Below are positions 1-13,364 of a DNA stretch of 13,986 bases, one piece after another. This DNA comes from a virus (taxonomy: Duplodnaviria > Heunggongvirae > Uroviricota > Caudoviricetes). The position numbers and the translations under genes are program-made. The notes under the pieces are model-generated. The model saw nothing but the letters and a program-made list of their open reading frames with translations, had not been told where the DNA came from and did not search any database. Within the stretch, counting starts at the first letter, position 1, and each line of letters opens with the position of its first letter. The stretch lies in IMG/VR virus record IMGVR_UViG_2609459823_000005. One strand, 5' to 3'.

Positions 1-732
1 GAGCGGCTAAAACTGGAGATTAAGGTGGCACATATCCGCACTCGCGAAACATATGGAACCCGGCGGCTCCAGACGGAGCTGGCAGAGAATGGCATCATCG
101 TTGGTCGTGACCGACTGGCACGTCTTCGTAAGGAGCTAAGGCTACGCTGTAAGCAGAAACGCAAGTTCAGAGCGACTACGAACCCGAACCACAATCTGCC
201 AGTTGCGCCAAATCTGCTGAACCAGACGTTCGCTCCTACAGCACCAAATCAGGTCTGGGTGGCGGACCTGACGTATGTTGCCACACAGGAGGGATGGTTG
301 TACCTCGCTGGCATCAAAGATGTTTATACGTGCGAAATTGTCGGCTACGCCATGGGAGAGCGCATGACAAAAGAGCTGACAGGTAAAGCCCTGTTTATGG
401 CGCTCAGGAGCCAGCGCCCACCTGCCGGGCTAATCCACCACTCTGATCGAGGTTCACAGTACTGCGCATACGATTACCGGGTCATACAGGAGCAGTTTGG
501 TCTGAAAACATCAATGTCGCGTAAAGGTAACTGTTACGACAACGCTCCGATGGAAAGCTTCTGGGGAACGCTGAAAAATGAGAGCCTGAGCCATTATCGT
601 TTTAATAACCGGGATGAAGCCATCTCAGTAATACGGGAATACATTGAGATTTTCTACAATCGTCAGCGTCGTCACTCTCGTCTGGGGAATATCTCCCCGG
701 CAGCCTTCAGGGAAAAAAAGAACAAATGGTAG
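1..732 (+). CDS. IS3-family transposase OrfB (DDE integrase), 5'-truncated by the window edge
   Basis: The reading frame is open from base 1 (the track's Met at 25 is internal) to TAG at 730-732. DDE-type motifs are visible: WVADLTYV, HHSDRGSQY and CYDNAPMESFWGTLKNE, with a C-terminal ISPAAF typical of IS3-family OrfB. The specific IS name is not recognised with certainty. Confidence 0.85.
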   Translation, partial: ERLKLEIKVAHIRTRETYGTRRLQTELAENGIIVGRDRLARLRKELRLRCKQKRKFRATTNPNHNLPVAPNLLNQTFAPTAPNQVWVADLTYVATQEGWLYLAGIKDVYTCEIVGYAMGERMTKELTGKALFMALRSQRPPAGLIHHSDRGSQYCAYDYRVIQEQFGLKTSMSRKGNCYDNAPMESFWGTLKNESLSHYRFNNRDEAISVIREYIEIFYNRQRRHSRLGNISPAAFREKKNKW

Positions 733-780
733 TGTCCGCTATTGCCAGTACACCTCATAATGAGGTCGAATTACTGCGCA
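1..780 (+). mobile_element. IS3-family insertion sequence, right-hand portion; right terminal inverted repeat not precisely located (somewhere in ~733-800)
   Basis: The transposase orfB ends at 732 and IS3-family elements usually carry a few tens of bp after orfB ending in ...CA (a CA occurs at 779-780). The boundary is an estimate because the left end is outside the window and no IR comparison is possible. Confidence 0.5.
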
Positions 781-1064
781 TTGAATTTTTTTCATAAAAA
801 AAGCATATATCCATTTGATTTGGCATTTGTTTTTTTCGTGTTTCTTATGAGTCATTTTCGCGTTTTTTTTTGAAACGGCTCAATAATGCCAAATCAACGT
901 ATAAGAAATAAACGGAACAGAACGCCTCACTTTAATGGTTTGAGATTTTTCTTGTTTCCGTATTGGTTTAAGCAGAAAATGTGTTTCTTAACATTTAGTG
1001 CTTGGTAATGATTCTCAGTTGCACTACCGAGTGCCCTATTAATGAAATCGTTGGACGTTACGCA

Positions 1065-1103
1065 CAGCACACTGGTAGCTAATGAGCCAGGGGCGGTAGC
1101 GTG
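1065..1103 (+). promoter_or_regulatory. JUMPStart 39-bp element containing the ops site (GGCGGTAGCGTG at 1092-1103); RfaH-dependent antitermination signal
   Basis: The sequence cagcacactggtagctaatgagccaggggcggtagcgtg matches the conserved JUMPStart element found upstream of enterobacterial polysaccharide operons, and its 3' end matches the ops consensus GGCGGTAGnnTG exactly. It sits about 90 bp upstream of the rmlB start. Confidence 0.85.
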
Positions 1104-1192
1104 CCTTGTTTTTGAATCAATGCCCTGGCTTGAATTTTGCATGTCGGTGCCACAGTAACAACTCGCAAACGCAAAGTAGATGGAATAAACTC

Positions 1193-2281
1193 GTGAAAAT
1201 ATTGGTCACAGGTGGGGCAGGTTTTATTGGATCTGCTGTCGTCCGTAATATCATTAAGAATACTCAGGATTCTGTAGTTAATGTTGATAAATTAACCTAT
1301 GCGGGCAATCTTGAATCGCTGGTTGAAATCGAAAACAGCGCCCGTTATGCTTTTGAATGTGCAGACATTTGTGATGCTGAGGCGATGTCGCGTATTTTCG
1401 CCACTCACCAGCCTGATGCTGTTATGCATCTGGCTGCAGAAAGCCATGTAGATCGCTCGATCACCGGCCCTGCTGCTTTTATTGAGACAAATATCGTGGG
1501 CACCTATGTGCTGCTTGAAGCCGCACGTAAATACTGGTCTCAACTTGATGAAACAAGTAAAGCCGCGTTCCGCTTTCATCATATTTCAACGGACGAAGTC
1601 TACGGCGATTTGCCGCATCCTGATGAAGTCCCCGCTGGCACCGCCTTGCCGCTGTTTACCGAGAAAACCCCTTATTCTCCCAGCAGTCCGTATTCCTCAT
1701 CGAAAGCGTCAAGTGACCATTTAGTACGTGCATGGCGCCGTACTTACGGCTTGCCGACCCTGGTGACGAATTGCTCAAATAACTATGGCCCATACCATTT
1801 CCCTGAAAAACTTATTCCGCTGATCATTCTTAATGCATTAGCTGGTAAGCCGTTACCGGTGTATGGCAATGGCGAGCAAATTCGCGACTGGCTATTTGTT
1901 GAAGATCATGCACGCGCCTTATATAAGGTCGTCACTGAGGGGGTTGCGGGTGAGACTTACAATATCGGTGGTCACAATGAGCGTAAGAATATTGAAGTCG
2001 TAAATACTATTTGTACTATTCTGGACGAAATCATTACTGCGAAACCTAATAATATTAGTAGCTTTGCAGAATTAATTACTTATGTCACCGACCGTCCGGG
2101 CCATGATCTGCGTTACGCCATTGATGCGAGCAAAATAAAAGATGAACTGGGCTGGGTACCGCAGGAGACTTTTGAATCAGGTATCCGCAAAACGGTTGAA
2201 TGGTATTTGACTAACCAGGACTGGTGGCAGCGTGTGATGGATGGATCATATGCTGGTGAACGCCTGGGGCTCGCAGAATAA
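1193..2281 (+). CDS. rmlB: dTDP-glucose 4,6-dehydratase
   Basis: Preferred start is the in-frame GTG at 1193, giving [14 protein letters not shown] (Rossmann GxxGxxG) and a length of ~362 aa. The catalytic YSSSK (YxxxK) and other blocks ([21 protein letters not shown]) closely resemble E. coli RfbB as recalled. The track's ATG at 1106 is rejected because that extension overlaps JUMPStart/ops. Confidence 0.92.
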
Positions 2282-2296
2282 AATCGTAAGGACGGA

Positions 2297-3172
2297 ATGA
2301 TGAAAGGTATTGTATTAGCTGGCGGTTCTGGAACTCGTCTTTATCCGATTACTCAGGGTGTGTCAAAACAGTTATTGCCTGTTTATGACAAGCCGATGGT
2401 TTTTTACCCAATATCAGTTCTAATGTTGGCAGGTATTCGTGACATTTTGATTATCACGACGCCGGAAGATATGGCCGCGTTTCAACGCCTGTTGGGAGAC
2501 GGCTCTCAATTTGGTATTCGCCTTTCCTATACTGTCCAACCTTCGCCGGACGGTTTAGCGCAGGCATTTATTCTGGGTGAAGAGTTCATTAATAATGAAC
2601 CTTGTGCTCTGGTGCTGGGCGACAATATCTATTTTGGTCAGAGTTTTGGTAAAAAACTCGAGGTTGCCTCTCAGTTGACCCAAGGTGCGATGGTATTCGG
2701 TTATAAAGTACAGGATCCTGAGCGTTTTGGTGTGGTTGAATTTGATGCGAACTACAAGGCATTGTCCATTGAAGAAAAACCACAGAAGCCAAAATCCAGT
2801 TGGGCAGTAACCGGTCTCTATTTTTACGACAAAAACGTTGTGGAAATGGCGAAGCAAGTCAAACCATCTGCTCGCGGTGAACTCGAAATTACGACACTTA
2901 ACCAAATGTATCTTGAACGCGGTGAGCTTCAGGTAGAGTTGCTCGGACGTGGTTTCGCATGGCTTGACACCGGCACACATGACAGTCTGGTTGAGGCTTC
3001 ACAGTTTATTCATACCATTGAAAAAAGGCAGGGTATGAAAGTCGCTTGCCTTGAAGAGATTGCGTTTCGCAATGGATGGATCGGCAGAGAACAACTTTTA
3101 GCGCAGGCAAAACTGTTCAGCAAAAATGATTATGGTAAGTATCTAAAAGTATTGGCTGGAGAACATGAATGA
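2297..3172 (+). CDS. rmlA: glucose-1-phosphate thymidylyltransferase
   Basis: The N-terminus [16 protein letters not shown](x)[13 protein letters not shown] is the nucleotidyltransferase signature, and the ~290-aa protein closely resembles E. coli RfbA. There are tandem ATGs at 2297 and 2300; the RBS aaggacgg (2288-2295) favours 2300. The stop overlaps the rmlC start (ATGA at 3169-3172). Confidence 0.92.
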
Positions 3173-3705
3173 ACGTCATTGACACTAAAATAAGCGATGT
3201 GAAGATTATTGAGCCAAAAGTCTTTGGTGATGAACGAGGGTTCTTTTTAGAAACATTTGAAAAAAAGAGATATCAAACCCTTTTGAATATCGATATGGAT
3301 TTTGTACAGGATAACCACTCACGTTCCAGCAAAGGCGTACTTCGTGGGCTTCACTTTCAGCGCAATAATCCTCAGGGGAAACTTGTTCGAGTAGTTCGTG
3401 GCGAAGTGTTTGATGTTGCTGTTGATATTCGTAAAGACTCACCAACCTATGGGGTGTGGGAAGGTGTAATTTTGTCAGAAACGAATAAAAAGCAATTCTG
3501 GATCCCACCGGGACTTGCTCATGGTTTCCTGGTACTCTCGGATATTGCTGATTTCGAATATAAATGTACCGACTATTATGATAGCAGTAGTGAAGGCTGT
3601 TTAATCTGGAATGATGAGCAAGTTGGGATTGCATGGCCAGTAATAGACGCTGAGATTAAACTTTCAGCAAAAGATGCTGTTGGTAAGTTACTGCGTGACC
3701 TATAA
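3169..3705 (+). CDS. rmlC: dTDP-4-dehydrorhamnose 3,5-epimerase family protein (RmlC-like cupin)
   Basis: The 178-aa protein has [11 protein letters not shown], the catalytic His in VLRGLHFQ, the GKLVR lysine, [10 protein letters not shown] and a Tyr in FEYK, which is the RmlC fold signature. Whether it performs a full 3,5-epimerisation or a single epimerisation cannot be told from sequence. Confidence 0.8.
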
Positions 3706-3716
3706 GTTTTACTAAC

Positions 3717-3746
3717 AGGCGTAGATATTTTCTACGCCTATTTTTT
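3717..3746 (+). terminator. Intrinsic-terminator-like hairpin between rmlC and wzm
   Basis: A perfect 9-bp stem aggcgtaga (3717-3725) / tctacgcct (3731-3739) with a 5-nt loop is followed by a T-run at 3741-3746. A TATAAT hexamer at 3754-3759 lies just before the wzm start. Confidence 0.55.
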
Positions 3747-3760
3747 GAGGCGCTATAATA

Positions 3761-4540
3761 GTGTTTAATAGTTTCATTCAAGGCCTGATAAATTATCGTG
3801 TTGTACTAAAACAATTAATAAGACAACAAGTAACGCTCAGGTATCGCAGAACAATGTTCGGTTTTTTATGGACCCTGCTTAATCCTCTTCTGAATATGGC
3901 AGTAATAGCGACTGTCTTTTCAATCGTAATGAAATTTCAGATAAGAGACTACGCCATTTTTCTCTTCTCTGCAGTTATTCCTTGGACTATGTTTTCAAAT
4001 ATCATTTCACAATGTTCTAATTCATTGATAGCAAATGAAAATCTATTTAAAAAAATATACTTACCAAAACAGATATTTATAACCGCTAGCGCAGTATCTG
4101 TTTTTATTGATTCGCTTCTGAGTACTATCTGTTTATTCATCATTGCATATTTCTTTGGCGCAAAATTAAGTTTGGCATTGATGTTTCTTCCAGTTTCATT
4201 TGCGATCTTATTTATATTCGCTTATGGTTTGGGTCTGATTTTTTCTGTAGTTTCTGTTTTTTTGCGCGACATGCAGTATCTGATCGGTGTGATTTTGCAA
4301 GCTCTATATTTTATGACCCCTATCATATATCCCGTTGATGCTGTTCCGGAACAGTACAAATGGGTTTTTGCATGGAATCCTATGTACTATTTTGTTGATT
4401 TATTTAGGGATCCAATCTACAACAATCAATTCCCTCCAGCTTATTCATTACAGCTTTGTGCGCTGACTGCCATTATTTCACTTTTGGTTGGTTTGTATGT
4501 ATTTAAAGTAAATGACAAAAAAATTATCTTCAGGTTGTAG
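3761..4540 (+). CDS. wzm: O-antigen/polysaccharide ABC transporter permease (ABC-2 family)
   Basis: The N-terminal motif LRYRRTMFGFLWTLLNPLL is typical of Wzm/KpsM, and the rest of the 259-aa protein is strongly hydrophobic with multiple predicted TM segments. Start is assigned to GTG 3761 with GAGG at 3747-3750; the ATG at 3854 would remove the conserved motif. The 3' end overlaps the wzt reading frame. Confidence 0.82.
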   Translation: MFNSFIQGLINYRVVLKQLIRQQVTLRYRRTMFGFLWTLLNPLLNMAVIATVFSIVMKFQIRDYAIFLFSAVIPWTMFSNIISQCSNSLIANENLFKKIYLPKQIFITASAVSVFIDSLLSTICLFIIAYFFGAKLSLALMFLPVSFAILFIFAYGLGLIFSVVSVFLRDMQYLIGVILQALYFMTPIIYPVDAVPEQYKWVFAWNPMYYFVDLFRDPIYNNQFPPAYSLQLCALTAIISLLVGLYVFKVNDKKIIFRL

Positions 4541-4541
4541 T

Positions 4542-5291
4542 ATGGAATCTAAAATTATTTTTAAAAATGTCTCTCTCGTATTTGATGAACATCAGCAACG
4601 AGGTCTGACGTTCAAAGAGTTATTTGCACGCACTCTCTCCGGTCGGAATAACGCTATAAAGGCGAATAAGAGAAAAGCTTTGGATTCAATAAGTATCGAG
4701 ATAAACCATGGAGAGCGAATCGGTATTGTCGGAAGCAATGGGGCAGGGAAAAGTACGTTCCTAAAAACACTTTGTCGTATTTATGAGCCAACCTCTGGTG
4801 AAATAAGCATATCAGGTAATATTGCACCGTTACTTGAGATTGGGGCTGGATTTAATCCAGAACTAAGCGGAAGAGAAAATATATATTTGAATGGTGCAAT
4901 TCTGGGCCATAGTATTTCTGAGCTTAAAAGTTTGGAAGCAGAAATTATTTCATTTTCAGAATTAAGTGAATATATTGATACACCTGTCAAATATTATTCA
5001 ACGGGCATGTATCTTAAATTAGCATTTTCAATTGCGACGGCAATCAAGCCTGATATTTTAGTTTTAGATGAACTGTTTGCTGGCGGTGACGCGGAATTTG
5101 TTGCTAAAGCTAAAAAAAGAATGGAACATTTCATCGCGGAATCAAGCATTATGTTTTTTGTATCTCATCAATTAGATTTGCTGCAGGAATTATGTACCCG
5201 CGTAATATGGATCGACCATGGTAAATTAATTGCTGATGGTGTACCAGACAAGGTAATTGAAGCATATTTGAATAAAGGTCATCATGATTAA
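4542..5291 (+). CDS. wzt: O-antigen/polysaccharide ABC transporter ATP-binding protein, short form without a C-terminal carbohydrate-binding domain
   Basis: Walker A GIVGSNGAGKST, ABC signature YSTGMYLKL, Walker B ILVLDELFAGGD and an H-loop (FFVSHQ) are all present. The track ORF begins at ATG 4512, but ATG 4542 (MESKIIFKNVSL) immediately follows the wzm stop and gives a typical N-terminus. At ~250 aa the protein is a nucleotide-binding domain only. Confidence 0.85.
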   Translation: MESKIIFKNVSLVFDEHQQRGLTFKELFARTLSGRNNAIKANKRKALDSISIEINHGERIGIVGSNGAGKSTFLKTLCRIYEPTSGEISISGNIAPLLEIGAGFNPELSGRENIYLNGAILGHSISELKSLEAEIISFSELSEYIDTPVKYYSTGMYLKLAFSIATAIKPDILVLDELFAGGDAEFVAKAKKRMEHFIAESSIMFFVSHQLDLLQELCTRVIWIDHGKLIADGVPDKVIEAYLNKGHHD

Positions 5292-6045
5292 TATTATAAT
5301 AGTCAGCCATCAAAATTTAGCTGACATTGATAAAATTCTCACAGAACTTGCGGGTGAAAATGATTATTATACTATTTATGTTCGTGACAATGTTGCTGAT
5401 GAGAATTTGAAGCGCCTTTGTTCTGATTATAACGTCTCATATTGTTCTGGTATTCGCCGAGAAGGCTTTGCCCTTAATAATAATATTGCTGCCGAAAAAG
5501 TATTACACTCATGTGAAATAGCTGATGATGATTATTTCCTGTTTATGAATCCTGATGCATATATTATTCGCGACGAGCTGATCAAACTCTCAACTATTTT
5601 GAGCGAAAAAAAATACGATATGTTCACTGTTGATCTGTATAGTAATGATGAATATACAATAAGAGATCCTTCCATTCGATATTTTCCAACGCTAAAAACA
5701 TTTCTATCTTCTTTTTTATTTGATACTAACAAAAGTATTATTAACAGGGATGCCATTCATCAAGATTTCGACCTGGATTGGTGTGCTAGCTCATTCTTTG
5801 GCGTTAAAGTTGGTTTGTTTAAAAGACTTAATGGCTTTGATTCCCGATTCTTTATGTATTGTGAAGATGTGGATATCTGTTACAGGGCTAAAAAATTAGG
5901 AGCCAAGCTTAGTTATATTGCAAATGTAAAAGCAATACACTACACTCAGAAAAATAGTAAAAAGATGCTCACTAAAAATTTTTATTGGCACGTTAAAAGT
6001 GCCATATTGTTTTTATGGAAAAAGCATACCCTGTCAAAAGGTTAA
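5284..6045 (+). CDS. GT2-family glycosyltransferase, WbbL-like dTDP-rhamnosyltransferase (candidate Rha to GlcNAc-PP-undecaprenol adaptor transferase)
   Basis: The 253-aa protein shares blocks with the E. coli WbbL rhamnosyltransferase as recalled from memory: IIIVSH, VRDN, DDDYFLFMNPDAY, DWCASSF, NGFD, FFMYCEDVDICYR, AIHY and WHVKS. The start overlaps the wzt stop by 8 bp. Confidence 0.6.
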   Translation: MINIIIVSHQNLADIDKILTELAGENDYYTIYVRDNVADENLKRLCSDYNVSYCSGIRREGFALNNNIAAEKVLHSCEIADDDYFLFMNPDAYIIRDELIKLSTILSEKKYDMFTVDLYSNDEYTIRDPSIRYFPTLKTFLSSFLFDTNKSIINRDAIHQDFDLDWCASSFFGVKVGLFKRLNGFDSRFFMYCEDVDICYRAKKLGAKLSYIANVKAIHYTQKNSKKMLTKNFYWHVKSAILFLWKKHTLSKG

Positions 6046-6050
6046 GATAA

Positions 6051-6944
6051 ATGTATTCTGTTGTGATGGGATTCCGCGAAAACTATAAACATTATGGGTA
6101 CACTACTCTTTTTTCTTTATTAACAAATAATAAAAACTCTTTTTTTTCAATCTATCTCCTTTCAGATAATCTGGATTTTGCATTTTTTAAAAAACTGGAG
6201 GATGTTTTTGCTTGCAAAATCATCCCTATTTCTATTTCGGCTGATCATATTGAAAATGTAAATTGTGGCTATCTTTCCTTTGGGACACTAATCCGCTTAT
6301 TAATCGGTGATTATCTTCCTGCTAATGTCGAAAAGGTTCTATACCTTGATGCTGATTTGATAATTGATGGCGATATTCATGAACTTCTTAATTATGAGTT
6401 AGGTTCACAGTATGCGGCAGTCGTAAGATCGAGTGCTCCTTATAAGCATCTCAAGGACATTAGGATAACATCCGAGCAGTACTTTAATGCGGGGGTGATA
6501 CTTTTTAATATGGAGATGTGTAGAAAAGATGATATTTTCATAAAAAGCCTTGATTTGTTAAAACGGAATAATTTTAAATATTTAGATCAAGATGCACTTA
6601 ATATTGCAATGGTAAACAATGTAAAATATGTTGATTCTAAATGGAATTTCGACTCATTTAGAGCAAAAACAATCTTACTTGATAGGAGTTATGCAAATAA
6701 ATACCCTGCAATAGCAATTTATCATTTTACAGGGCGTGACAAACCATGGTTTAAACATTGCATCAACCAGTATCAGAGTATTTATCTTCGTTATTTCGCT
6801 GAAATTCTAGGCTATGATGTTATCAATAATAAAAATAAATTTCAGTATTTTAAATTTAAACTGATTAAATTCTTATTCAGTAACTTTGTAACCCGTAAAA
6901 TTATTTACCATTTAAGAAACTATATTCGGACTAATATTCACTAA
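6051..6944 (+). CDS. GT8-family retaining glycosyltransferase (RfaJ/RfaI/LgtC-like; alpha-hexosyltransferase)
   Basis: GT8 hallmarks are present: the DxD motif in LYLDADLIIDGD, FNAGVILFN, YLDQDALN and the C-terminal HFTGRDKPW (H-x-x-G-x-x-KPW). Length is 297 aa and the donor sugar cannot be assigned from sequence. Confidence 0.75.
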   Translation: MYSVVMGFRENYKHYGYTTLFSLLTNNKNSFFSIYLLSDNLDFAFFKKLEDVFACKIIPISISADHIENVNCGYLSFGTLIRLLIGDYLPANVEKVLYLDADLIIDGDIHELLNYELGSQYAAVVRSSAPYKHLKDIRITSEQYFNAGVILFNMEMCRKDDIFIKSLDLLKRNNFKYLDQDALNIAMVNNVKYVDSKWNFDSFRAKTILLDRSYANKYPAIAIYHFTGRDKPWFKHCINQYQSIYLRYFAEILGYDVINNKNKFQYFKFKLIKFLFSNFVTRKIIYHLRNYIRTNIH

Positions 6945-6953
6945 GGACATTTT

Positions 6954-8333
6954 GTGGAGACTATACAAATAGCCACTGGAGTAAGTCGTAACTTCTTTGA
7001 CCCATTGAGTGTCATGCTTACTTCCTTGCTTGAAAATAATCAATCACATAAAATCAATTTTCATGTTTTGCACAGTGATTTTACGGATGATGATGAAGAA
7101 AAATTTAGCCTTTTGTTTACTAAATATGAAAACCTGGGGCTTAAATTCATCAAGTTAGATGAATCTAAATTAGAAGGGCTTCCCCTTCTGCAACATTTCA
7201 AGATCTCAACGTATTTTCGAATTCTGGCGCCAGCTGTTTTAAGTGAATATGATAAACTCCTTTATCTCGATGCCGACATTATTGTTGACAATGATATTCT
7301 GGAATTATGGCAGACCGATGTCACCAACTATACCCTCGCAGCAGTTCGTGAAGAGAGTATTGTCGCGTTAGATAAACGTTTGAGAATGCCTGCCAATTAT
7401 AAGTATTTCAATGCTGGTGTTGTTGTATTAAATAGTAAAAAAATTCGAGAAGAAAATAAGTTCGGTCCTGTTATCGATTATCTAAAAGAAAATATCAATG
7501 AGATCCTTTATCTTGATCAGGATGCTTTAAATGCTATTCTCTACGATGAATGGTTAGAAATAGACGAGAAATGGAATTATCATAATACCTTTATCCTGAA
7601 AAAAAATAATAACAAAGAGCATATCTTATTAGATAAACCAGTTATTATTCATTATACTGGTCCAGTCAAACCATGGGATGCGGAAAGTTCACATATATTT
7701 AAAAGCCGCTATTGGCATTACAAGAAAATATTAACAGGGAGTGTCGATGAAATTAAAGCTGGTTTTAACATACATAGTACGCTTGCTAAAAGAATAATAA
7801 AATATGCATATAGAGTTATTCTTTCCAATTATTATTTAAGAAAGCTGATTCTTAAAACAAATACATCATTAAAGCAGAGTGAGCATTTTGCGAAATATTA
7901 TTTTAAGTTTAAGGAACGTTTTGCTCCTGCACCTCAGATAATGTCGTCATTCGAAGCGAAGTTAGTTCAAGTTGATGTACCACTTCTAGAATCAACCATG
8001 GATTATGGTTTTTTCAGTATAAGGGAGTTCTTGAACTATATACAAATTTCTGGATATGTTTTCAAAAAAGAGTTTTCTGATAGAAATACTAATAAATATT
8101 TTGTCTTGAGAAACAGTGTCGACCCTAATTTGCTATATTGTTTTAAACTTAACAGTCATGACCATGTTTGGATTAATGATATATATAATGATGGTAATGA
8201 CTATTCAAAAAGTGGGTTCTTTAATTTCATCGGCAAAAGAGAGCTTAAAAGTGGAAGGTATGAAGTTGGATTAATCGTCCAAAATTCAAAAGGTGTACAT
8301 TATAAAATGACTGACACTACAGTAATTATTTGA
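6954..8333 (+). CDS. GT8-family glycosyltransferase with an extra ~190-aa C-terminal extension (two-domain protein)
   Basis: The N-terminal ~260 aa carry the GT8 motifs LYLDADIIVDND, FNAGVVVLN, YLDQDALN and HYTGPVKPW. The C-terminal portion has no GT8 similarity and contains a block (ISGYVF ... LKSGRYEV) that is also seen in the next protein. Start is GTG 6954 with RBS AAGGA at 6943-6947. Confidence 0.75.
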   Translation: METIQIATGVSRNFFDPLSVMLTSLLENNQSHKINFHVLHSDFTDDDEEKFSLLFTKYENLGLKFIKLDESKLEGLPLLQHFKISTYFRILAPAVLSEYDKLLYLDADIIVDNDILELWQTDVTNYTLAAVREESIVALDKRLRMPANYKYFNAGVVVLNSKKIREENKFGPVIDYLKENINEILYLDQDALNAILYDEWLEIDEKWNYHNTFILKKNNNKEHILLDKPVIIHYTGPVKPWDAESSHIFKSRYWHYKKILTGSVDEIKAGFNIHSTLAKRIIKYAYRVILSNYYLRKLILKTNTSLKQSEHFAKYYFKFKERFAPAPQIMSSFEAKLVQVDVPLLESTMDYGFFSIREFLNYIQISGYVFKKEFSDRNTNKYFVLRNSVDPNLLYCFKLNSHDHVWINDIYNDGNDYSKSGFFNFIGKRELKSGRYEVGLIVQNSKGVHYKMTDTTVII

Positions 8334-8343
8334 CGAGGAATCC

Positions 8344-9564
8344 ATGGATATTAAAATTTATTCGTCTTTTTATAAAAAATACTTCATTTATAAAAGCGAC
8401 ATTGTAGAACCTGTTTTTGTTGGTGCGGCCGAAAAGAATAATGATTTAGGCATCATTGGTGATGATACTGGCGATAATATTAGCGATAAAAACGGCACGT
8501 TCAATGAATTAACTTTAATTTATTGGGTCTGGAAAAATACTACAAATCAAGATTATGTAGGCTTCTGTCATTATAGAAGATATTTTATAAATAGAAGCAT
8601 CAGTAAATTTGAAAAAGCATTGCATCTTCTGATTCCACGCGATAAAGAGCGTAGAGAGCGTAAATTATTACGTTTGTTACAGCAGTTTGATAAAAATTGT
8701 GAATCCGAATTGAAAGGATTTGATATAGCGTTACCTAAGCCTATTGTTATGAATCGTACTTTGCGTGAACAATATGCTGATTATCATGATGGCGCGCATT
8801 ATGAGGAAATGGGTAAGGTTATTCGAGAATTACGTCCTGACATGTGGCCTGCTTACGAAGATGCGTCAAATCGAAATACTTTCTTCATCGCTAATATGTT
8901 CATTTTTAGCCGCAAGTATTTTGATCAATTTTGCGAGTTTGCCTTTCCGGTTCTTTTTGAACTAGAGAAAAGGTTAGAAGTGCCGGATGATATGTATCAA
9001 AAACGTATTTTTGGATACTTAGGTGAGCGGTTGGTAACAATCTTTGTAAATTATTTATATCAACAAAAGAATGTTAAATTCAAATATTTTGATCTATTAA
9101 ATACTGATGTTATTTTTTCAAATTACAAATCGTATCTAACCGAAAAAAAATTAATAAGCAGTAAAAATAAAAACTACGTCACTTTTGGTGCTGTTGATAA
9201 TCTAATCAAAATGTCAAACAATTTTTACTGCATGAATGGTTGGGTTATAATTAAAGATCGCGAATCCTATAATGTTACGGTTCAAATTGAGTTATATAGT
9301 GATGAAAACACTATTATGCTTAATAGCGAAAGACAGGATCGGCCTGATGTAACCCGGCACTTTATCAATGTTCATGATGGGTACGTTAATTACGATAATT
9401 GCGGCTATTACACTAGTTTTAAATGTGATGAGATTAAAAGTGGTGAATATAAAATTAAGTTTCATGCATTTGATAAAATAGAGAAAACAACTTCAATTTT
9501 TTATGTTTATGACTGTTTTTTAAAGAAACATAAAAATGAAGTTGAGCTTGTGAGGTTACCATGA
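8344..9564 (+). CDS. DUF4422-type putative glycosyltransferase (WbbI/WbbM-N-like, candidate galactofuranosyltransferase) with a C-terminal extension
   Basis: The motifs ELTLIYWVWKN, VGFCHYRRYF and GYLGERLVTIF match my recollection of the DUF4422 family, which includes known Galf-transferases; this is not verified by a profile search. The C-terminal ~110 aa (NGWVI ... IKSGEYKI) resemble the C-terminus of the preceding protein. RBS GAGGA at 8335-8339; the stop overlaps the glf start (ATGA). Confidence 0.6.
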   Translation: MDIKIYSSFYKKYFIYKSDIVEPVFVGAAEKNNDLGIIGDDTGDNISDKNGTFNELTLIYWVWKNTTNQDYVGFCHYRRYFINRSISKFEKALHLLIPRDKERRERKLLRLLQQFDKNCESELKGFDIALPKPIVMNRTLREQYADYHDGAHYEEMGKVIRELRPDMWPAYEDASNRNTFFIANMFIFSRKYFDQFCEFAFPVLFELEKRLEVPDDMYQKRIFGYLGERLVTIFVNYLYQQKNVKFKYFDLLNTDVIFSNYKSYLTEKKLISSKNKNYVTFGAVDNLIKMSNNFYCMNGWVIIKDRESYNVTVQIELYSDENTIMLNSERQDRPDVTRHFINVHDGYVNYDNCGYYTSFKCDEIKSGEYKIKFHAFDKIEKTTSIFYVYDCFLKKHKNEVELVRLP

Positions 9565-10730
9565 TTAGTTATGATTACATTATTGTAGGCTGCGGTCTTT
9601 CTGGTATTGTTCTGGCAAATAATATTGCTGAGAAATTAAATAAAAAAGTGCTTATTATTGAGAAGCGCGATCATATCGGAGGAAACTGTTACGATTACTA
9701 TGATGAACATGGTGTCCTTGTACATAAATATGGTCCGCATATTTTCCATACAAATTATAAAGATGTCTATGACTACCTTGATCAATTCACTGAATGGTAT
9801 GTTTATCAGTTCCAGGCACGAACACTGATTGATGGTAAAAAAACATTTTTGCCCTTCAACCTGAACACGATGAAGGATATTCTTGACGAGCATTTATATG
9901 ACAAGATATCTAAAAAACTCATCGAAGTTTATGGTTATGATAAAACCGTACCTATTTTCGAGTTAAAAAAATCAGAGGATGAAACCATCCAATGGTTGGT
10001 TGACTATATTTACGATAAAGTCTATGTGAACTATATCGCTAAACAATGGGACATGAAACCCGAAGACCTCGACAAGAGTGTGCTTGAACGTGTTCCCGTA
10101 TATATTTCTCGCGATAATCGATATTTCAAAGACAAATATCAAGTTATGCCACGAGACGGTTATACGGTTATGTTCAACCGGATGTTGGCAAACAAAAACA
10201 TACATGTTCTGTTGAATGCTAATGCAGACGATTTTGTCACGCTGACCGATAAGCATGAAGTTCACTTCATGGGCAAGCCATTTGAAGGCAAGTTGATTTA
10301 CACCGGTCAGATTGATCATCTTTTCAATTATAAATTTGGCGAGTTACCTTATCGTTCCTTGCGCTTTGATTTTGTTAATTACAAAAAAGAGTTCTTCCAG
10401 GAAGTGGCTATGGTTAGCTACCCAAATAATTATGATTTCACTCGTATTACGGAAAGTAAGCATTTGACCGGGCAGGATTGCAAAACGACCACTGTTGTTT
10501 ATGAATATCCCCAGAATTATGATCGTAATGATCCTATCAAAGATGTACCTTATTATCCTGTGCCAAGAGCCGATAACCATGAACTTTATGCAAAATATTC
10601 AGAGCTTGCTGGTAAGTATAAATCTTTGATACTGGTTGGTCGTTTAGCTCAATACAAGTACTACAACATGGATCAGATGATCAAAGTTGCCCTTGATACA
10701 TTTAAAGAAATTCAAGCTGGAGAAAAGTAA
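9561..10730 (+). CDS. glf: UDP-galactopyranose mutase family flavoprotein (NDP-hexopyranose mutase)
   Basis: The N-terminal FAD-binding YDYIIVGCGLSGIVLAN ... KKVLIIEKRDHIGGNCY and HKYGPHIFHTN closely parallel E. coli K-12 Glf as recalled, with conserved blocks throughout the 389 aa. A dTDP-fucopyranose mutase (Fcf2-like) cannot be excluded from sequence alone. Confidence 0.85.
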   Translation: MISYDYIIVGCGLSGIVLANNIAEKLNKKVLIIEKRDHIGGNCYDYYDEHGVLVHKYGPHIFHTNYKDVYDYLDQFTEWYVYQFQARTLIDGKKTFLPFNLNTMKDILDEHLYDKISKKLIEVYGYDKTVPIFELKKSEDETIQWLVDYIYDKVYVNYIAKQWDMKPEDLDKSVLERVPVYISRDNRYFKDKYQVMPRDGYTVMFNRMLANKNIHVLLNANADDFVTLTDKHEVHFMGKPFEGKLIYTGQIDHLFNYKFGELPYRSLRFDFVNYKKEFFQEVAMVSYPNNYDFTRITESKHLTGQDCKTTTVVYEYPQNYDRNDPIKDVPYYPVPRADNHELYAKYSELAGKYKSLILVGRLAQYKYYNMDQMIKVALDTFKEIQAGEK

Positions 10731-11662
10731 TGAAGACTATTTTAATTGTTGGTGGTTCTGGCTTCATGGGTGCGAATTTTACTGAATACTTTGTTGCGAA
10801 AGGCTACAAGGTTATTAGCTTCAGTAATTCACCAACCCGTATCCAGCATGAAAATGTGGTAAATGTTTGCGGTGATAGCCGTGATGCCGAAGCTATTAAT
10901 GAAATTTTTGTTAATCACAAAATTGATTTGGTTGTTTTTACGTTGACGAGTTTTTGGGTGGTTGATGGGGTGAGCTCCTATCAAGATTTGACCGCCATTA
11001 ACCTGACTGCGTTTATCGATGTACTGAATATCATGAAGCGTCACAATGTTAATGAAGTGATTTACATCTCTTCTGGTGGCTCTATCTATGGAGAGTCCGA
11101 TAAGCCGATTCCGGAAGATTCACCGCTCTGCCCGGTCAGTTTTTATGGCTGGATCAAAGAAGCGGCAGAAAGCTATCTTAAATATGAAGCCCGTATTAAT
11201 CCCCATTTGCGCTATCTTGTATTTCGTCCTTCCAATGTTTACGGAAAATATCAGCAGCTCAACCGCATCATTGGTGTAGCGCTTAAAAATACACATTTGG
11301 ACATCCCAATGAATATTTATGGTGGTGCGGATACGAAGAAAGACTATATTTATATCGATGATTTCTGTGAGATCATCTTTAATATCTTGAATAAAAATGT
11401 CTGGAACGAAACGTACAATATTGGTTCTGGTGTCGGAACCAGCATTCGAGAAATTCTGGATCTTGCTCAGGAAGTTGTGAATAAGCCACTTGCTGTTGAG
11501 TATGGAAAACAGAAAGAGGGTGATATCAGTTATAGCGTATTAGATGTTGAGAAAGTTAAGGCTGTAACTGGTAAGCAAAGCTTCACCAACGTCAAAGACG
11601 GCATGCGTAAAATGTATCCGTACGTTGTCGAAGAACTGGCACGTCTGGCAGCGAAGGCCTAA
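10730..11662 (+). CDS. NAD(P)-dependent epimerase/dehydratase (extended SDR) family protein; candidate nucleotide-sugar 4-reductase or 4-epimerase
   Basis: Rossmann motif IVGGSGFMGANF at the N-terminus and catalytic YGWIK (YxxxK) preceded by ISSGGS. Length is 310 aa and the start overlaps the glf stop (TAATG). Precise activity is not assignable by eye. Confidence 0.7.
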   Translation: MKTILIVGGSGFMGANFTEYFVAKGYKVISFSNSPTRIQHENVVNVCGDSRDAEAINEIFVNHKIDLVVFTLTSFWVVDGVSSYQDLTAINLTAFIDVLNIMKRHNVNEVIYISSGGSIYGESDKPIPEDSPLCPVSFYGWIKEAAESYLKYEARINPHLRYLVFRPSNVYGKYQQLNRIIGVALKNTHLDIPMNIYGGADTKKDYIYIDDFCEIIFNILNKNVWNETYNIGSGVGTSIREILDLAQEVVNKPLAVEYGKQKEGDISYSVLDVEKVKAVTGKQSFTNVKDGMRKMYPYVVEELARLAAKA

Positions 11663-11862
11663 TAGCTTATCCTGCTTCTTGAGCAAGAGATGATTGTAAT
11701 GGTTTTGTTAACACTTTTTTGCTCAATAGTGGGCTAGTCCTTTAAAACTTTTTTAGGTTAACATGTTAGTCACGTATCCCGACGGCGAATGCGGCGTCGG
11801 GAATCCACACCTGACAGGAGTTTTGCATGCCTAAGCAACAAATCGGCGTTGTTGCTTAGGCC

Positions 11863-13233
11863 GTGATGGGGCGCAACCTGGCGCTTAACATCGAAAGCCG
11901 TGGCTATACCGTTTCCGTTTTCAACCGCTCCCGCGATAAGACCGAAGAAGTGATTGCCGAGAACCCCGGCAAGAAGCTGGTTCCGTATTATACCGTGAAA
12001 GAGTTTGTTGAATCCTTAGAAACTCCCCGTCGCATCCTGTTAATGGTGAAAGCGGGCGCTGGCACAGATGCTGCTATTGACTCCCTGAAACCCTATCTGG
12101 AAAAAGGCGACATCATTATTGATGGCGGTAACACCTTCTTCCAGGACACCATTCGTCGTAACCGCGAACTGTCTGCTGAGGGCTTTAACTTTATCGGTAC
12201 CGGTGTGTCCGGTGGTGAAGAGGGCGCACTGAAAGGCCCATCCATCATGCCTGGCGGTCAGAAGGATGCCTATGAACTGGTCGCACCGATCCTGACCAAA
12301 ATTGCAGCCGTTGCCGAAGATGGCGAGCCCTGTGTGACCTATATCGGTGCTGACGGTGCGGGCCATTACGTTAAAATGGTTCACAACGGTATCGAATATG
12401 GCGACATGCAGTTGATTTCAGAAGCCTACTCTCTGCTGAAAGGCGGTCTTAACCTGTCTAACGAAGAGCTGGCCACCACTTTTAGCGAGTGGAATAAAGG
12501 CGAGCTGAGCAGCTACCTGATCGACATTACCAAGGACATCTTCACTAAAAAAGATGAAGAGGGTAACTATCTGGTCGATGTGATTCTCGATGAAGCGGCC
12601 AACAAAGGTACGGGTAAATGGACCAGCCAAAGCTCGCTGGATCTCGGCGAACCGCTCTCCCTGATCACCGAATCCGTATTCGCACGCTATATCTCGTCGC
12701 TGAAAGAGCAGCGCGTTGCCGCATCTAAAGTTCTGAGCGGTCCGCAGGCCCAGCCTGCTGGCGATAAAGTGCAGTTTATCGAGAAAGTCCGTCGCGCATT
12801 GTATCTCGGTAAAATCGTCTCTTATGCCCAGGGTTTCTCTCAGTTGCGTGCTGCGTCTGACGAATACAACTGGGATCTGAACTATGGCGAAATCGCGAAA
12901 ATTTTCCGCGCTGGCTGCATCATTCGTGCACAGTTCCTGCAGAAAATTACCGATGCATACGCTGAAACACCGGCAATTGCTAACCTGCTGTTGGCACCTT
13001 ACTTTAAGAAAATTGCCGATGAGTATCAGCAGGCTTTGCGTGATGTTGTAGCCTATGCCGTACAAAATGGTATTCCGGTACCGACTTTTGCCGCTGCGGT
13101 TGCCTATTACGATAGCTACCGTGCTGCGGTACTGCCGGCAAACCTGATTCAGGCTCAGCGTGATTACTTTGGCGCACATACTTATAAACGTACTGATAAA
13201 GAAGGTGTATTCCATACGGAATGGCTGGATTAA
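11863..13233 (+). CDS. gnd: 6-phosphogluconate dehydrogenase (decarboxylating), N-terminal region disrupted
   Basis: The 456-aa ORF matches E. coli Gnd over essentially its whole length ([17 protein letters not shown] ... GVFHTEWLD). The conventional start is ATG 11827, preceded by RBS AGGAG (11816-11820), and would encode MPKQQIGVVA before an in-frame TAG at 11857-11859. The intact ORF therefore restarts only at GTG 11863 / ATG 11866 and lacks the first strand of the NADP-binding fold. Confidence 0.8.
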
Positions 13234-13264
13234 TCTGATATTGTACGTTTTGTCGAATAAATAT

Positions 13265-13288
13265 CCTCCGGCATAGCCGGAGGTTTTT
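13265..13288 (+). terminator. Rho-independent terminator downstream of gnd
   Basis: An 8-bp GC-rich stem cctccggc (13265-13272) / gccggagg (13276-13283) with loop ata is followed by TTTTT at 13284-13288, about 30 bp after the gnd stop. Confidence 0.7.
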
Positions 13289-13364
13289 CAAATGCGCCTA
13301 TAAGGCTCTCTTACCAGCCGCGCCCTAACAGGCGCACACGATCTGACATTTGCATCCAACTTCG

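Follow-up and report, generated by a model that had tools for sequence, protein, structure and literature searches.

Among the described systems that the cluster analysed here resembles are the Klebsiella pneumoniae O2a pathway for D-galactan I (wzm-wzt-wbbM-glf-wbbN-wbbO) and the mycobacterial galactan linker pathway (WbbL, GlfT1, GlfT2 and Wzm-Wzt/RfbDE). The former is an ABC-transporter pathway with glf, no terminator and a Wzt without carbohydrate-binding domain, all of which recur here; the latter combines a GlcNAc-PP-lipid primer, a 6-deoxyhexose adaptor, a Galf polymer and an ABC exporter, a logic that our cluster appears to share. Complete, mobile and IS-bounded rfb clusters, like the one described here, are also carried by plasmids, including pINV of Shigella sonnei, the plasmid of S. 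dysenteriae prov. BEDP 02-5104, pIncX3 of K. pneumoniae (NZ_CP036195) and pKAM621_3 of Citrobacter braakii. Further, Escherichia coli O62 has an ABC-dependent, glf-containing galactan type of cluster that came from K. aerogenes by way of an IS (PMC5867348), is located outside galF-gnd and takes precedence over the resident O antigen (Hou et al. 2017, per PMC5867348). O62 and the plasmid rfb clusters of K. pneumoniae and C. braakii are precedents for mobile clusters superseding the chromosomal O antigen.

Here, we describe the window, i.e. the whole stretch of 13,986 nucleotides that was analysed, whose host is E. coli according to the names of the members of its protein clusters. We consider it likely that the window contains an entire operon for ABC-transporter-dependent O-polysaccharide synthesis and export, which was acquired horizontally, is bounded by IS elements and works by a split-WbbM-type mechanism. 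The gene order is JUMPstart/ops, rmlB-rmlA-rmlC, wzm-wzt, a divergent GT2, two GT8 genes, DUF4422 (GT111), glf, an SDR gene and gnd (Table 1). In the loci spanning the whole cluster, none of the 11 biosynthetic genes is disrupted. Apart from the named genes and the IS transposases, open reading frames (ORFs) of at least 80 aa comprise only short ones, either antisense or internal. The ops element (GGCGGTAGCGTG, at 1092-1103) occurs once and had no match in 200 shuffles; together, JUMPstart and ops are recognisable as the RfaH-dependent antitermination signal of the operon. GC content is 28-36% in the cluster centre and about 51% in gnd. A preliminary description had proposed an ABC-transporter-dependent cluster without wzx/wzy or a terminator, and this was borne out: Rfam, Pfam and NCBIfam placed JUMPstart/ops and all genes it listed at the same positions, and profile searches of the window proteins found no wzx, wzy, methyltransferase, kinase or terminator domains. 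The window also has no rmlD.

Table 1 Features of the window, with their positions and the matches on which they were assigned.
Feature	Position	Strand	Basis
3' part of IS600 (IS3 family); left module boundary	1-780	+	NF033516 IS3 transposase, 295 bits
JUMPstart with ops	1065-1103	+	Rfam RF01707, 59 bits (gathering score 35)
rmlB	1193-2281	+	NF007490, 698 bits (cut-off 649)
rmlA, glucose-1-phosphate thymidylyltransferase	2297/2300-3172	+	TIGR01207, 511 bits (cut-off 360.65)
rmlC, dTDP-4-dehydrorhamnose 3,5-epimerase	3169-3705	+	TIGR01221, 263 bits (cut-off 155.75)
wzm, ABC-2 permease of O-polysaccharide exporter	3761-4540	+	PF01061, 72.7 bits
wzt, nucleotide-binding subunit, 249 aa	4542-5291	+	PF00005, the sole Pfam match
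GT2-like (GT-A, inverting), divergent, 253 aa	5284-6045	+	PF13641, 24 bits, and PF00535, 22 bits, both just sub-threshold
GT8, retaining alpha-hexosyltransferase, 297 aa	6051-6944	+	PF01501, 123.5 bits
GT8, alpha-hexosyltransferase, 459 aa	6954-8333	+	PF01501, 174.6 bits
DUF4422/GT111 galactofuranosyltransferase, 406 aa	8344-9564	+	PF14393, 207.3 bits
glf, UDP-galactopyranose mutase	9561-10730	+	TIGR00031, 454.7 bits (cut-off 303.75)
Extended SDR, 310 aa, translationally coupled to glf	10730-11662	+	PF01370, 125.6 bits
gnd, foreign passenger	11827-13233	+	About 87% nucleotide identity to E. coli gnd
IS200 tnpA, cut by IS1 insertion; right boundary of conserved module	13365-13742	-	NF033573, 103 bits
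IS1 end, at window end	13746-13986		IS1A/IS1B annotated under thousands of E. coli matches

The likeness to Klebsiella galactan noted in the preliminary description is borne out by the two largest glycosyltransferases, which match the two catalytic halves of WbbM. GT111, with a catalytic domain at residues 1-257, matches residues 29-286 of WbbM (6u4b; phmmer 2.9e-32), and its AlphaFold2 model (pLDDT 88) retrieves the same structure with Foldseek (5.4e-17); a C-terminal Ig-like beta-sandwich follows at about 280-404, for which there was no specific PDB match. The 459-aa GT8 has a catalytic domain (1-262), a helical linker (276-332) and a C-terminal beta-sandwich (350-458), and matches LgtC and the GT8 domain of WbbM both by sequence (2e-20 and 1.4e-18) and by its AlphaFold2 model (pLDDT 82; Foldseek 7e-18 and 1e-16). 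Relatives in Erwinia and Pantoea have a fused 630-aa DUF4422+GT8 form, and in two variant clusters (L011 and L013) precisely these two genes are swapped for a DUF4422 protein (261 aa) and a GlfT2-like protein (605 aa), while rmlBAC, wzm, wzt, GT2, a GT8, glf and the SDR gene are kept. Based on the matches to both WbbM halves, the fused form and the paired replacement, we propose a split WbbM, in which GT111 would be the polymerase half that adds Galf and the 459-aa GT8 the half that adds alpha-Gal(Glc)p. Unlike in O2a, the polymerase consists of two proteins that have each gained a C-terminal beta-sandwich, and the window has neither a WbbO-type GT4 nor a WbbN-like GT2, but an additional GT8, rmlBAC and a putative novel reductase; the last two suggest that a 6-deoxyhexose is involved.

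The transporter also relates to both described systems. In a Pfam search of all 249 aa of Wzt, no C-terminal carbohydrate-binding domain or other further domain was found, and since no terminator is encoded either, export is probably O2a-like. Its best solved relative is the mycobacterial galactan exporter RfbE (9qfx_C, 1.1e-53), and it also matches Aquifex aeolicus Wzt (2.1e-50, across residues 34-248), as Wzm does A. aeolicus Wzm (6m96_B, 5.2e-24). With RfbE as nearest relative and a GlfT2-like polymerase in the sister cluster L011/L013, the mycobacterial-type chemistry suggested earlier gains support; unlike the mycobacterial pathway, the window has no GlfT2, and in its polymer Galf probably takes turns with an alpha-hexopyranose.

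For the adaptor, two smaller enzymes are candidates. The GT2-like protein had been labelled WbbL-like, which the data do not establish, as it scores 18.8 bits against the TIGR01556 rhamnosyltransferase model (cut-off 200.55); it also had no sequence match in the PDB. It is kept in L011 at 48.6% identity, although the polymerase genes of that cluster differ, and is probably the proposed 6-deoxyhexosyltransferase that would make the adaptor on Und-PP-GlcNAc. L011 also encodes a GT8 that is 38.6% identical to the 297-aa GT8, for which we propose a role as second adaptor enzyme or side-branch enzyme; this protein has a basic, amphipathic C-terminal tail and scores 85 bits, under the cut-off, against NF011718 (LPS 3-alpha-galactosyltransferase). 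The assignment of the two enzymes to adaptor and not repeat-unit synthesis is tentative, as it is drawn from this single variant-cluster comparison.

The enzyme completing the 6-deoxyhexose looks like the SDR. No NCBIfam model scored above its cut-off for this protein, and the Asp that ends beta2 in GalE-type epimerases is replaced (FSNS, FSRS or FGRS) in most of the orthologous family, where the Ser/Gly plus Arg represents an NADP(H) signature. In Erwinia and Pantoea, SDR orthologues directly follow rmlB-rmlA in loci that have no rmlC or rmlD; a separate 337-aa SDR gene lies just upstream, and there is no other enzyme for the 4-keto sugar. The protein thus looks like an NADPH-dependent dTDP-4-keto-6-deoxyhexose 4-reductase replacing the absent RmlD. 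Its closest solved relatives are UDP-glucose 4-epimerases (4zrm, 1.1e-31; 7ys8, 1.7e-24), the name that some sources give to its homologues, and the top NCBIfam match is TIGR01179 galE. Together with the translational coupling to glf, this would also fit a GalE-like UDP-hexose 4-epimerase supplying UDP-Gal to Glf and the GT8 enzymes, with an rmlBAC branch that either relies on host RmlD or is vestigial. In that case, the rml pathway would be left without a reductase unless the host provides RmlD. We find such a role unlikely, as the galE score (118.6 bits) is far under the cut-off of 262, the NAD-binding Asp conserved in epimerases is lost in most of the family and the Erwinia/Pantoea orthologue adjoins rmlB-rmlA.

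With the SDR as 4-reductase, the following sequence of events can be proposed. Host WecA would make Und-PP-GlcNAc, and RmlA, RmlB and RmlC, with the SDR acting as NADPH 4-ketoreductase in place of RmlD, would produce a dTDP-6-deoxyhexose, for which L-rhamnose and 6-deoxy-L-talose are the candidates. The small GT2 would put this sugar on the primer, and the 297-aa GT8 would add an alpha-hexose to complete the adaptor. Using UDP-Galf from Glf, GT111 and the 459-aa GT8, each with its extra C-terminal beta-sandwich, would then act as a split Klebsiella WbbM and extend an alternating beta-Galf/alpha-Gal(Glc)p chain like galactan I, the choice of Gal or Glc and the linkages being predictions. Wzm/Wzt would export the chain as in Klebsiella O2a, coupled to elongation, and host WaaL would ligate it to lipid A-core, where it may add to or replace the chromosomally encoded O antigen. 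The predicted product is a galactofuranose-containing cell-surface polymer, the structure of which we deduce entirely from gene content.

The chromosomes of Cronobacter turicensis, Franconibacter helveticus and Ewingella americana carry the same 11 genes at galF-gnd, as does one enterobacterial scaffold. Six loci (L009, L012, L014 and L033-35) have the same order between galF and gnd-his with nearly all product lengths equal, and three of them (L009, L012 and L033) align colinearly with the window at about 72-74% nucleotide identity over about 12 kb, a level that holds for C. turicensis and F. helveticus. At the amino-acid level, identities to the Franconibacter proteins are 57-76% for GT2, GT8 and GT111 and 81-91% for rmlC, glf and SDR, those to Ewingella range from 41 to 84% for the same set, and Cronobacter reaches 74% for GT111 and 76% for the 459-aa GT8; rmlC is 84-92% identical across the orthologous clusters. 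A dN of 0.07-0.37, saturated dS and the lack of length changes among these clusters point to strong purifying selection. The orthologous clusters of Cronobacter, Franconibacter and Ewingella occupy a native locus beside galF and his, whereas in E. coli the cluster lies outside that locus and is flanked by IS elements.

This setting differs from the native locus between JUMPStart and gnd implied in the preliminary description: the window carries an acquired, IS-bounded module with its own foreign gnd. The IS600 part, whose orfB remnant ORF (25-732) lies upstream of the cluster, is about 99.5% identical to IS600 of S. sonnei plasmids, and in two loci (L002 and L003) it is cut off at window position 521, bordering on an IncF leading region that contains psiB, ISShdy1 and a DNA methylase. 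At the other end, the conserved module stops at 13745 in every E. coli copy reaching that far; IS200 tnpA is a 125-aa ORF in the window and 152 aa in L001, and DDE_Tnp_IS1 genes were called in L018 and L019. Searches of 5,426 complete E. coli genomes and 72,556 plasmids (PLSDB) did not find the cluster. Its absence from these collections, the gnd identity of about 87% and the IS600, IS200 and IS1 flanks show that the cluster is not native to E. coli, which acquired it from other enteric bacteria on a mobile IS-flanked segment, outside galF-gnd. The size of most carrying contigs (10-20 kb) fits such a segment. One 148-kb contig joins the cluster via IS1 to the pheU region, but the identical IS1-TPR-integrase-tRNA-Phe arrangement is present in genomes without the cluster, so this join may be an assembly artefact.

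The assembly collection contains the exact SDR protein in 277 indexed blocks and the exact 459-aa GT8 in 159; the carriers are numerous isolates from surveillance and from the gut of children. In 20 E. coli draft-assembly loci it differs from the window by 0-14 SNPs and no indels, one copy (L019, GCA_000714015.1) is identical over 1866-13986, and the rmlB gene call is 362 aa in all E. coli copies. The only decayed gene of the module is the dispensable gnd. In the window it has a premature stop (MPKQQIGVVA*) at about 11855-11860 and differs by three adjacent substitutions from the allele of L001, L004, L023 and L026, which is intact and encodes 468 aa; compared with L009 gnd, amino-acid identity is 95%. 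This co-transferred gene is inactivated in most E. coli copies, and IS1 has inserted within it in some. Such decay, the missing rmlD and a promoter scan of 700-1250 that found no sigma-70-like site could indicate a silent passenger moved by IS/plasmid traffic, unexpressed or unproductive for want of an encoded RmlD or through out-competition by the host O antigen. We give this little credence, since the 11 genes are intact with so few differences over 20 loci and gnd alone has decayed, JUMPstart/ops is intact, and orthologous clusters likewise lacking rmlD still occupy the O-antigen locus position (galF-gnd) in their hosts.

If the module is a working O-polysaccharide operon, its off-locus, IS-flanked position means that standard sequence-based serotyping may overlook it. 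No named serogroup or solved structure matching the cluster was found, and for the Cronobacter, Franconibacter and Ewingella clusters no serotype name or structure was found either, the accessible Cronobacter serotyping literature treating wzx/wzy types alone. The type may be undescribed, as raised earlier: complete E. coli genomes and PLSDB yielded no match above 95% to a named, solved cluster, and the closest orthologous clusters reach about 72-74%. E. coli O20 and O62, the Shigella BEDP 02-5104 plasmid cluster and ten Citrobacter types were excluded as its identity. O62 has neither rml genes nor an SDR among its genes, unlike the 11-gene cluster of the window, the closest relatives of which are in Cronobacter, Franconibacter, Ewingella and a Citrobacter/Enterobacter-like scaffold. 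The K. pneumoniae plasmid NZ_CP036195 shares the JUMPstart-rmlB-rmlA end (88% nucleotide identity) and gnd (95-98%) with the window, but the central genes differ, being of a rhamnan type (RgpF-like) on the Klebsiella and Citrobacter plasmids and of a wzx/wzy fucose type in BEDP 02-5104.

The structures of O20, O57 and O60 misfit their galF-gnd loci, and their functional clusters lie elsewhere (PMC7685785). The window, being off-locus in E. coli, could be the unlocated functional cluster of a catalogued serogroup of which only the genes were missing, most plausibly O60, whose O-unit is without GlcNAc and GalNAc as expected for an ABC-type polymer; O57 is smooth, yet its galF-gnd interval is devoid of O-antigen genes. 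We regard this as improbable: a cluster identical to that of Klebsiella O4 already accounts for O20ab (PMC11231755), O57 is missing from the list of HexNAc-free O-units (PMC7685785) and fits a Galf/hexose polymer poorly, and the carriers, isolated in surveillance or from the gut of children, are not known as O60 strains.

The furanose itself would be supplied by Glf, which matches the UDP-galactopyranose mutases 3hdq (2.6e-98) and 1i8t (6.2e-69) in the PDB. That the adjacent, overlapping glf-SDR pair, kept in all orthologues, instead resembles Fcf1/Fcf2 of E. coli O52, a pathway reportedly described by Wang et al. in 2008, so that RmlA, RmlB, reductase and mutase would yield dTDP-D-fucofuranose and the polymer would carry 6-deoxy-Galf (Fucf) in place of or besides Galf, is very unlikely even with SDR orthologues occurring beside rmlA and rmlB but without rmlC, as Glf scores above the curated equivalog threshold for UDP-galactopyranose mutase, and rmlC, which is conserved and maintained by purifying selection, is not needed for making dTDP-D-fucofuranose. 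The protein cluster of the window Glf at 90% identity or more also contains the Glf of C. braakii.

The galactan-type O-polysaccharide operon in the window is real and intact; it depends on an ABC transporter and was acquired horizontally. This class of system is already known and the operon is a further member of it, not a new kind of system; of note are its location on mobile DNA away from the usual locus in many E. coli isolates, the division of a WbbM-type polymerase into two proteins with accessory domains, and a candidate reductase replacing RmlD. An ORF map and HMM scans of the window bore out the gene list of the preliminary description, as well as its placement of the operon in the ABC-transporter-dependent class, with Wzm and Wzt present, JUMPstart and ops upstream, and wzx and wzy absent (all ORFs of at least 80 aa were accounted for, and Wzm was the sole polytopic membrane protein found). 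The GC content falls to 28-36% in the centre of the window, and low central GC is a typical trait of O-antigen clusters.

Features of the module in the window, with model scores where available
Feature	Position	Remark
IS600 transposase remnant	25-732	upstream neighbour of cluster
JUMPstart	1065-1103	Rfam RF01707, 59 bits (gathering score 35)
ops GGCGGTAGCGTG	1092-1103	inside JUMPstart, upstream of operon
rmlB	1193-2281	
rmlA	2297-3172	
rmlC	3169-3705	
wzm, ABC-2 permease	3761-4540	PF01061, 72.7 bits
wzt, ATPase	4542-5291	PF00005, 69.9 bits
GT2-like protein, divergent	5284-6045	
GT8, 297 aa	6051-6944	
GT8, 459 aa	6954-8333	
DUF4422 protein, 406 aa	8344-9564	
glf	9561-10730	
Extended SDR, 310 aa	10730-11662	last operon gene
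gnd	11827-13233	after SDR
IS200 tnpA, truncated, then IS1	13365-13986	downstream neighbours of cluster

In PDB searches Wzm matched A. aeolicus Wzm (5.2e-24), while the best solved relatives of Wzt were mycobacterial (M. tuberculosis) RfbE (1.1e-53) and A. aeolicus Wzt (2.1e-50), and judged by these matches the transporter is a member of the O-antigen/galactan ABC exporters. Wzt is a bare nucleotide-binding subunit of 249 aa in which the carbohydrate-binding domain is absent, and Pfam/NCBIfam HMM scans found no methyltransferase or kinase domain in the window. Both features, a Wzt without carbohydrate-binding domain and the absence of a terminator enzyme, are shared with Klebsiella O2a.

The two large transferases are, according to sequence and model comparisons, counterparts of the two halves of WbbM, the galactan I polymerase of Klebsiella O2a. 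In the DUF4422 protein, residues 1-257 correspond to the GT111 part of WbbM (structure 6u4b; phmmer 2.9e-32, and Foldseek 5.4e-17 with an AlphaFold2 model of pLDDT 88 as query); for the 459-aa GT8 the matches are LgtC and WbbM's GT8 half. In Klebsiella O2a the GT111 and GT8 are fused in WbbM, whereas in the window they are separate proteins of 406 and 459 aa, each with an extra C-terminal beta-sandwich of ~110-125 residues (~280-404 in the GT111 protein and ~350-458 in the GT8). These domains, which have no Pfam family and no specific PDB match, could have a role in oligomerisation or glycan binding. Homology between the two was rejected, as they share no Pfam family and BLASTP gave no more than a weak local alignment (E 0.009) over a short motif (sGFf...l.sG.Y.i). 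Klebsiella O2a additionally has the adaptor enzymes WbbN (GT2) and WbbO (GT4), whereas the window is without a GT4. Relatives in Erwinia amylovora and Pantoea agglomerans encode a fused 630-aa DUF4422 plus GT8 protein together with WbbN/WbbO-like GT2 and GT4 enzymes, and tblastn of the window GT2 against the GT2 and GT4 of these WbbM-type loci gave zero hits.

The division of labour among the transferases is suggested by a sister cluster, seen in two of the fetched loci (L011 and L013), which retains rmlBAC, wzm, wzt, the small GT2 (48.6% identity), a GT8 (38.6%), glf and the SDR gene; the SDR protein is even identical between L011 and the orthologous cluster on an enterobacterial metagenome scaffold (L009). 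In the sister cluster the GT111 and GT8 pair is swapped (L011 6228-8827, L013 1-2209) for a 261-aa DUF4422 protein and a GlfT2-like protein of 605 aa that carries the GlfT2 N-terminal domain, and the proteins swapped are exactly the two bearing the extra domains. The gene set of this cluster, which resides in Enterobacteriaceae, resembles mycobacterial galactofuranan synthesis. The swap points to a scheme in which an adaptor common to both clusters would be built on Und-PP-GlcNAc by GT2 and the 297-aa GT8, and GT111 and the 459-aa GT8 would be a polymerase pair for a chain of alternating beta-Galf and alpha-hexopyranose. The polymer predicted by this model has Galf and alpha-Gal/Glc at roughly 1:1 and a sub-stoichiometric amount of 6-deoxyhexose. 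In the scheme, synthesis would be initiated on Und-PP-GlcNAc by WecA, GT2 followed by the 297-aa GT8 would add the adaptor, the polymerase pair would extend it with the alternating polymer, and WaaL would ligate the product to lipid A-core, the genes of WecA and WaaL both lying outside the window. [quoted passage not shown]

In the dTDP-sugar branch of the pathway, RmlA, RmlB and RmlC pass curated equivalog cut-offs, and no RmlD was found in the window, where the SDR, at 41.4 bits, stays under the TIGR01214 cut-off of 224. We propose from sequence features, and from the gene neighbourhood of its Erwinia and Pantoea orthologues, that the SDR is the missing 4-ketoreductase, acting in place of RmlD. 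In most of the orthologous SDR family, the Asp at the end of beta2, which is NAD-binding in UDP-glucose 4-epimerases, is replaced by FSNS, FSRS or FGRS, a replacement that reads as an NADP(H) signature; the closest solved relatives of the SDR are themselves UDP-glucose 4-epimerases, which counts against the reductase reading. Under a minor alternative, two of the operon's enzymes would work like Fcf1 and Fcf2 of E. coli O52 and yield dTDP-D-fucofuranose; the O52 pathway comprises RmlA, RmlB, Fcf1 and Fcf2 (a 4-reductase and a Glf-like mutase that act on dTDP sugars), but Glf passes the UDP-Galp mutase equivalog model and rmlC is conserved. For the SDR as a 4-ketoreductase replacing RmlD, the product would be L-rhamnose or 6-deoxy-L-talose with RmlC, and D-fucose or D-quinovose without RmlC. 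The SDR orthologues in Erwinia and Pantoea lie directly after rmlB-rmlA, with rmlC and rmlD absent there and a separate 337-aa SDR gene just upstream, and this gene string implies a D-configured 6-deoxyhexose (fucose or quinovose) from the SDR family. In these loci (L015 from E. amylovora and L016 from P. agglomerans, 7900-17650) rmlB, rmlA, SDR, wzm, wzt, the gene for the fused WbbM-like protein, glf, GT2 and GT4 are located downstream of amylovoran/stewartan-type EPS genes.

Within the operon, GT2 is the logical user of the dTDP-sugar, being the sole inverting non-Galf transferase encoded. The preliminary description labelled it WbbL-like, and its motif GFDxRFFMYxEDVD is one that we take to resemble those of WbbL-type rhamnosyltransferases. 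Against the TIGR01556 rhamnosyltransferase model the protein scores 18.8 bits (cut-off 200.55) in an alignment spanning most of its length, and its scores against general GT2 Pfam models are just under threshold; we thus use the label as a hypothesis.

The same 11 genes, in the same order and with near-equal product lengths, occupy the galF-gnd-his locus of the chromosome in Cronobacter turicensis (L033-35), Franconibacter helveticus (L012), Ewingella americana (L014) and the metagenome scaffold L009. With three of the four orthologous clusters the window aligns colinearly over ~12 kb at 72-74% identity, beginning at the rmlB start and ending at the gnd stop. Compared with the scaffold and Franconibacter, amino acid identities are 82-92% for rmlC, glf and SDR, 57-76% for the transferases and 93-95% for gnd, and relative to the scaffold dN is 0.07-0.37, with synonymous sites saturated and zero length changes. 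As far as such sequence comparisons tell, the gene set has long been maintained as a functional unit. No direct donor was found among the fetched loci. A K. pneumoniae plasmid (pIncX3, NZ_CP036195.1) has a JUMPstart-rmlB-rmlA end with 88% nucleotide identity to that of the window and a split, partly inverted gnd that is 95-98% identical to the window's, whereas its centre, unlike the window, is a rhamnan-type ABC rfb cluster, and the plasmid cluster is IS26-bounded. Shared ends around a different centre suggest cassettes that recombine via conserved ends, or exchange among plasmid-borne O-antigen modules. The plasmid is an IncX3 resistance plasmid carrying armA, msrE, mphE and sul1, and its matching regions are 14001-16208 and 25925-28223.

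The host of the window's cluster is, by sequence affiliation, E. coli: all named members of the 90% protein clusters of Wzm, the transferases and the SDR are E. coli, save two Flavonifractor-labelled fragments, and the flanking IS600, IS200 and IS1 are ~99% identical to E. coli or Shigella copies. The cluster lies away from galF-gnd in E. coli, and only the orthologues from other genera occupy that chromosomal position. The cluster occurs in 0 of 5,426 complete E. coli genomes, even with blastn sensitivity for the GT region and glf-SDR, which rules out a native E. coli serogroup at galF-gnd. It likewise occurs in 0 of 72,556 PLSDB plasmids, where no record covers >15% of the window and tblastn with the 459-aa GT8 gave only ~31% identity or less among the matches listed, ruling out a known plasmid as carrier. 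Scanning contigs of species-representative genomes with GT8 and with SDR also found no relative. Draft assemblies carry the cluster commonly, with the exact 459-aa GT8 in 159 blocks and the exact SDR in 277 blocks of a public assembly collection; the carrying contigs are mostly 10-20 kb, as expected of a repeat-bounded segment. Each of twenty E. coli copies that were fetched is separated from the window by 0-14 SNPs and zero indels, and one of them (L019; GCA_000714015.1, contig JOQI01000067.1, 14,014 bp) shows no difference across the 12.1 kb in common, so that the window is essentially one such draft contig.

Beyond the conserved module the sequence differs among isolates. In two copies (L002 and L003) the truncated IS600 adjoins an IncF-type leading region with ISShdy1, a DNA methylase and psiB; in other copies the flanks include HigBA, an IS30-family element, a group II intron, an IS256-family element and a resolvase, and the flanks of some copies resemble EAST1-carrying ETEC plasmids. 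These flanking sequences indicate that the module is mobile and IS-bounded, and that it is most likely plasmid-borne in at least some isolates. On one 148-kb contig (L028) the cluster is joined via IS1 to the chromosomal pheU region, a placement that is unreliable, as the join passes through IS1 and the arrangement of IS1, TPR-protein, integrase and tRNA-Phe is also found in genomes without the cluster; the chimeric-looking join, in assembly GCA_013689275.1, may therefore be an assembly artefact. The string of IS1, TPR-protein, P4-type integrase and tRNA-Phe recurs on the pheU/pheV side in L028 (4608-7551) and in several complete E. coli genomes (H105-H112), and probably gave rise to the join.

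With regard to serotype, the preliminary description raised the possibility of an undescribed O-antigen type, and among the 5,426 complete E. coli genomes and 72,556 plasmids no >95% match to a named cluster with a solved structure was found; the type is a candidate for an undescribed one. Several named types were ruled out. The cluster already assigned to E. coli O20ab is identical to that of Klebsiella O4. E. coli O62, according to its published description, is a six-gene set (wzm, wzt, glf and three GTs) from K. aerogenes (PMC5867348), set apart by gene content from the window's 11 genes including rmlBAC and SDR. The plasmid-borne rfb of S. dysenteriae prov. BEDP 02-5104 (CP048012, AP022515) is a wzx/wzy GDP-fucose cluster. 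The Citrobacter ABC-type serotypes O3, O5, O6, O7, O8, O9, O14, O26, O30 and O32 were excluded since 0 of 24 published primers and probes, which target serotype-specific wzm or GT genes (PMC6240886), match the window or the L009-L013 clusters at <=3 mismatches. A named Cronobacter serotype is conceivable; the serotyping literature examined treats wzx/wzy types only. E. coli O57 and O60 have published structures, and their functional clusters have not been located (PMC7685785); the O60 repeat is without HexNAc, which makes O60 a candidate identity. A literature search for reports of the window's cluster, O57/O60 or Erwinia O-antigen structures returned nothing usable.

A joint reading, possible but on balance doubtful, would see the module as an O-antigen cassette circulating between E. 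coli plasmids and islands, recombining through JUMPstart-rmlBA and gnd ends common to Klebsiella plasmid-borne rfb cassettes, and converting its hosts to an uncatalogued galactan-like serotype that is possibly cross-reactive with Klebsiella O1/O2 or equals the orphan E. coli O60, with an undescribed RmlD-replacing 4-reductase family and a split WbbM-type polymerase with accessory beta-sandwiches. If the cassette reading is true, genome serotyping based on chromosomal wzx/wzy would miss the converted serotype. O antigens govern serotyping, vaccine design, phage susceptibility and serum resistance, and a complete off-locus operon on mobile DNA could falsify the genome-predicted serotypes of its carriers. 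Further, the cluster offers a testable candidate for orphan serogroup O60, a putative natural 'split' WbbM galactan polymerase as a model for the cooperation of two glycosyltransferases, and a candidate new reductase family in dTDP-6-deoxyhexose synthesis. Should the polymer resemble Klebsiella galactan I, it would also bear on the cross-reactivity of Klebsiella O1/O2 vaccine antibodies.

At its right end the module is being eroded by independent IS1 insertions: in the window's lineage IS1 lies inside the IS200 tnpA, leaving a 125-aa ORF where one E. coli copy (L001, 16412-16870) has a 152-aa gene, and in five others (L005, L006 and L028-L030) it lies instead inside gnd at ~12990. The window gnd shares only ~87% identity with that of E. 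coli and is cut short by a stop (MPKQQIGVVA*) at codons 10-11 (11855-11860). Three base changes in a stretch of four (GGTATG to GCTTAG) created this premature stop, which deletes the start of the Rossmann GxGxxG motif. An intact 468-aa gnd allele is retained in L001, L004, L023 and L026, and 76 blocks of the public assembly collection contain the truncated 455-aa gene call. A perfect GC-rich hairpin (CCCGACG-GCGAATGCG-GCGTCGGG) lies between SDR and gnd at 11779-11803, just 5' of the gnd ribosome-binding site.
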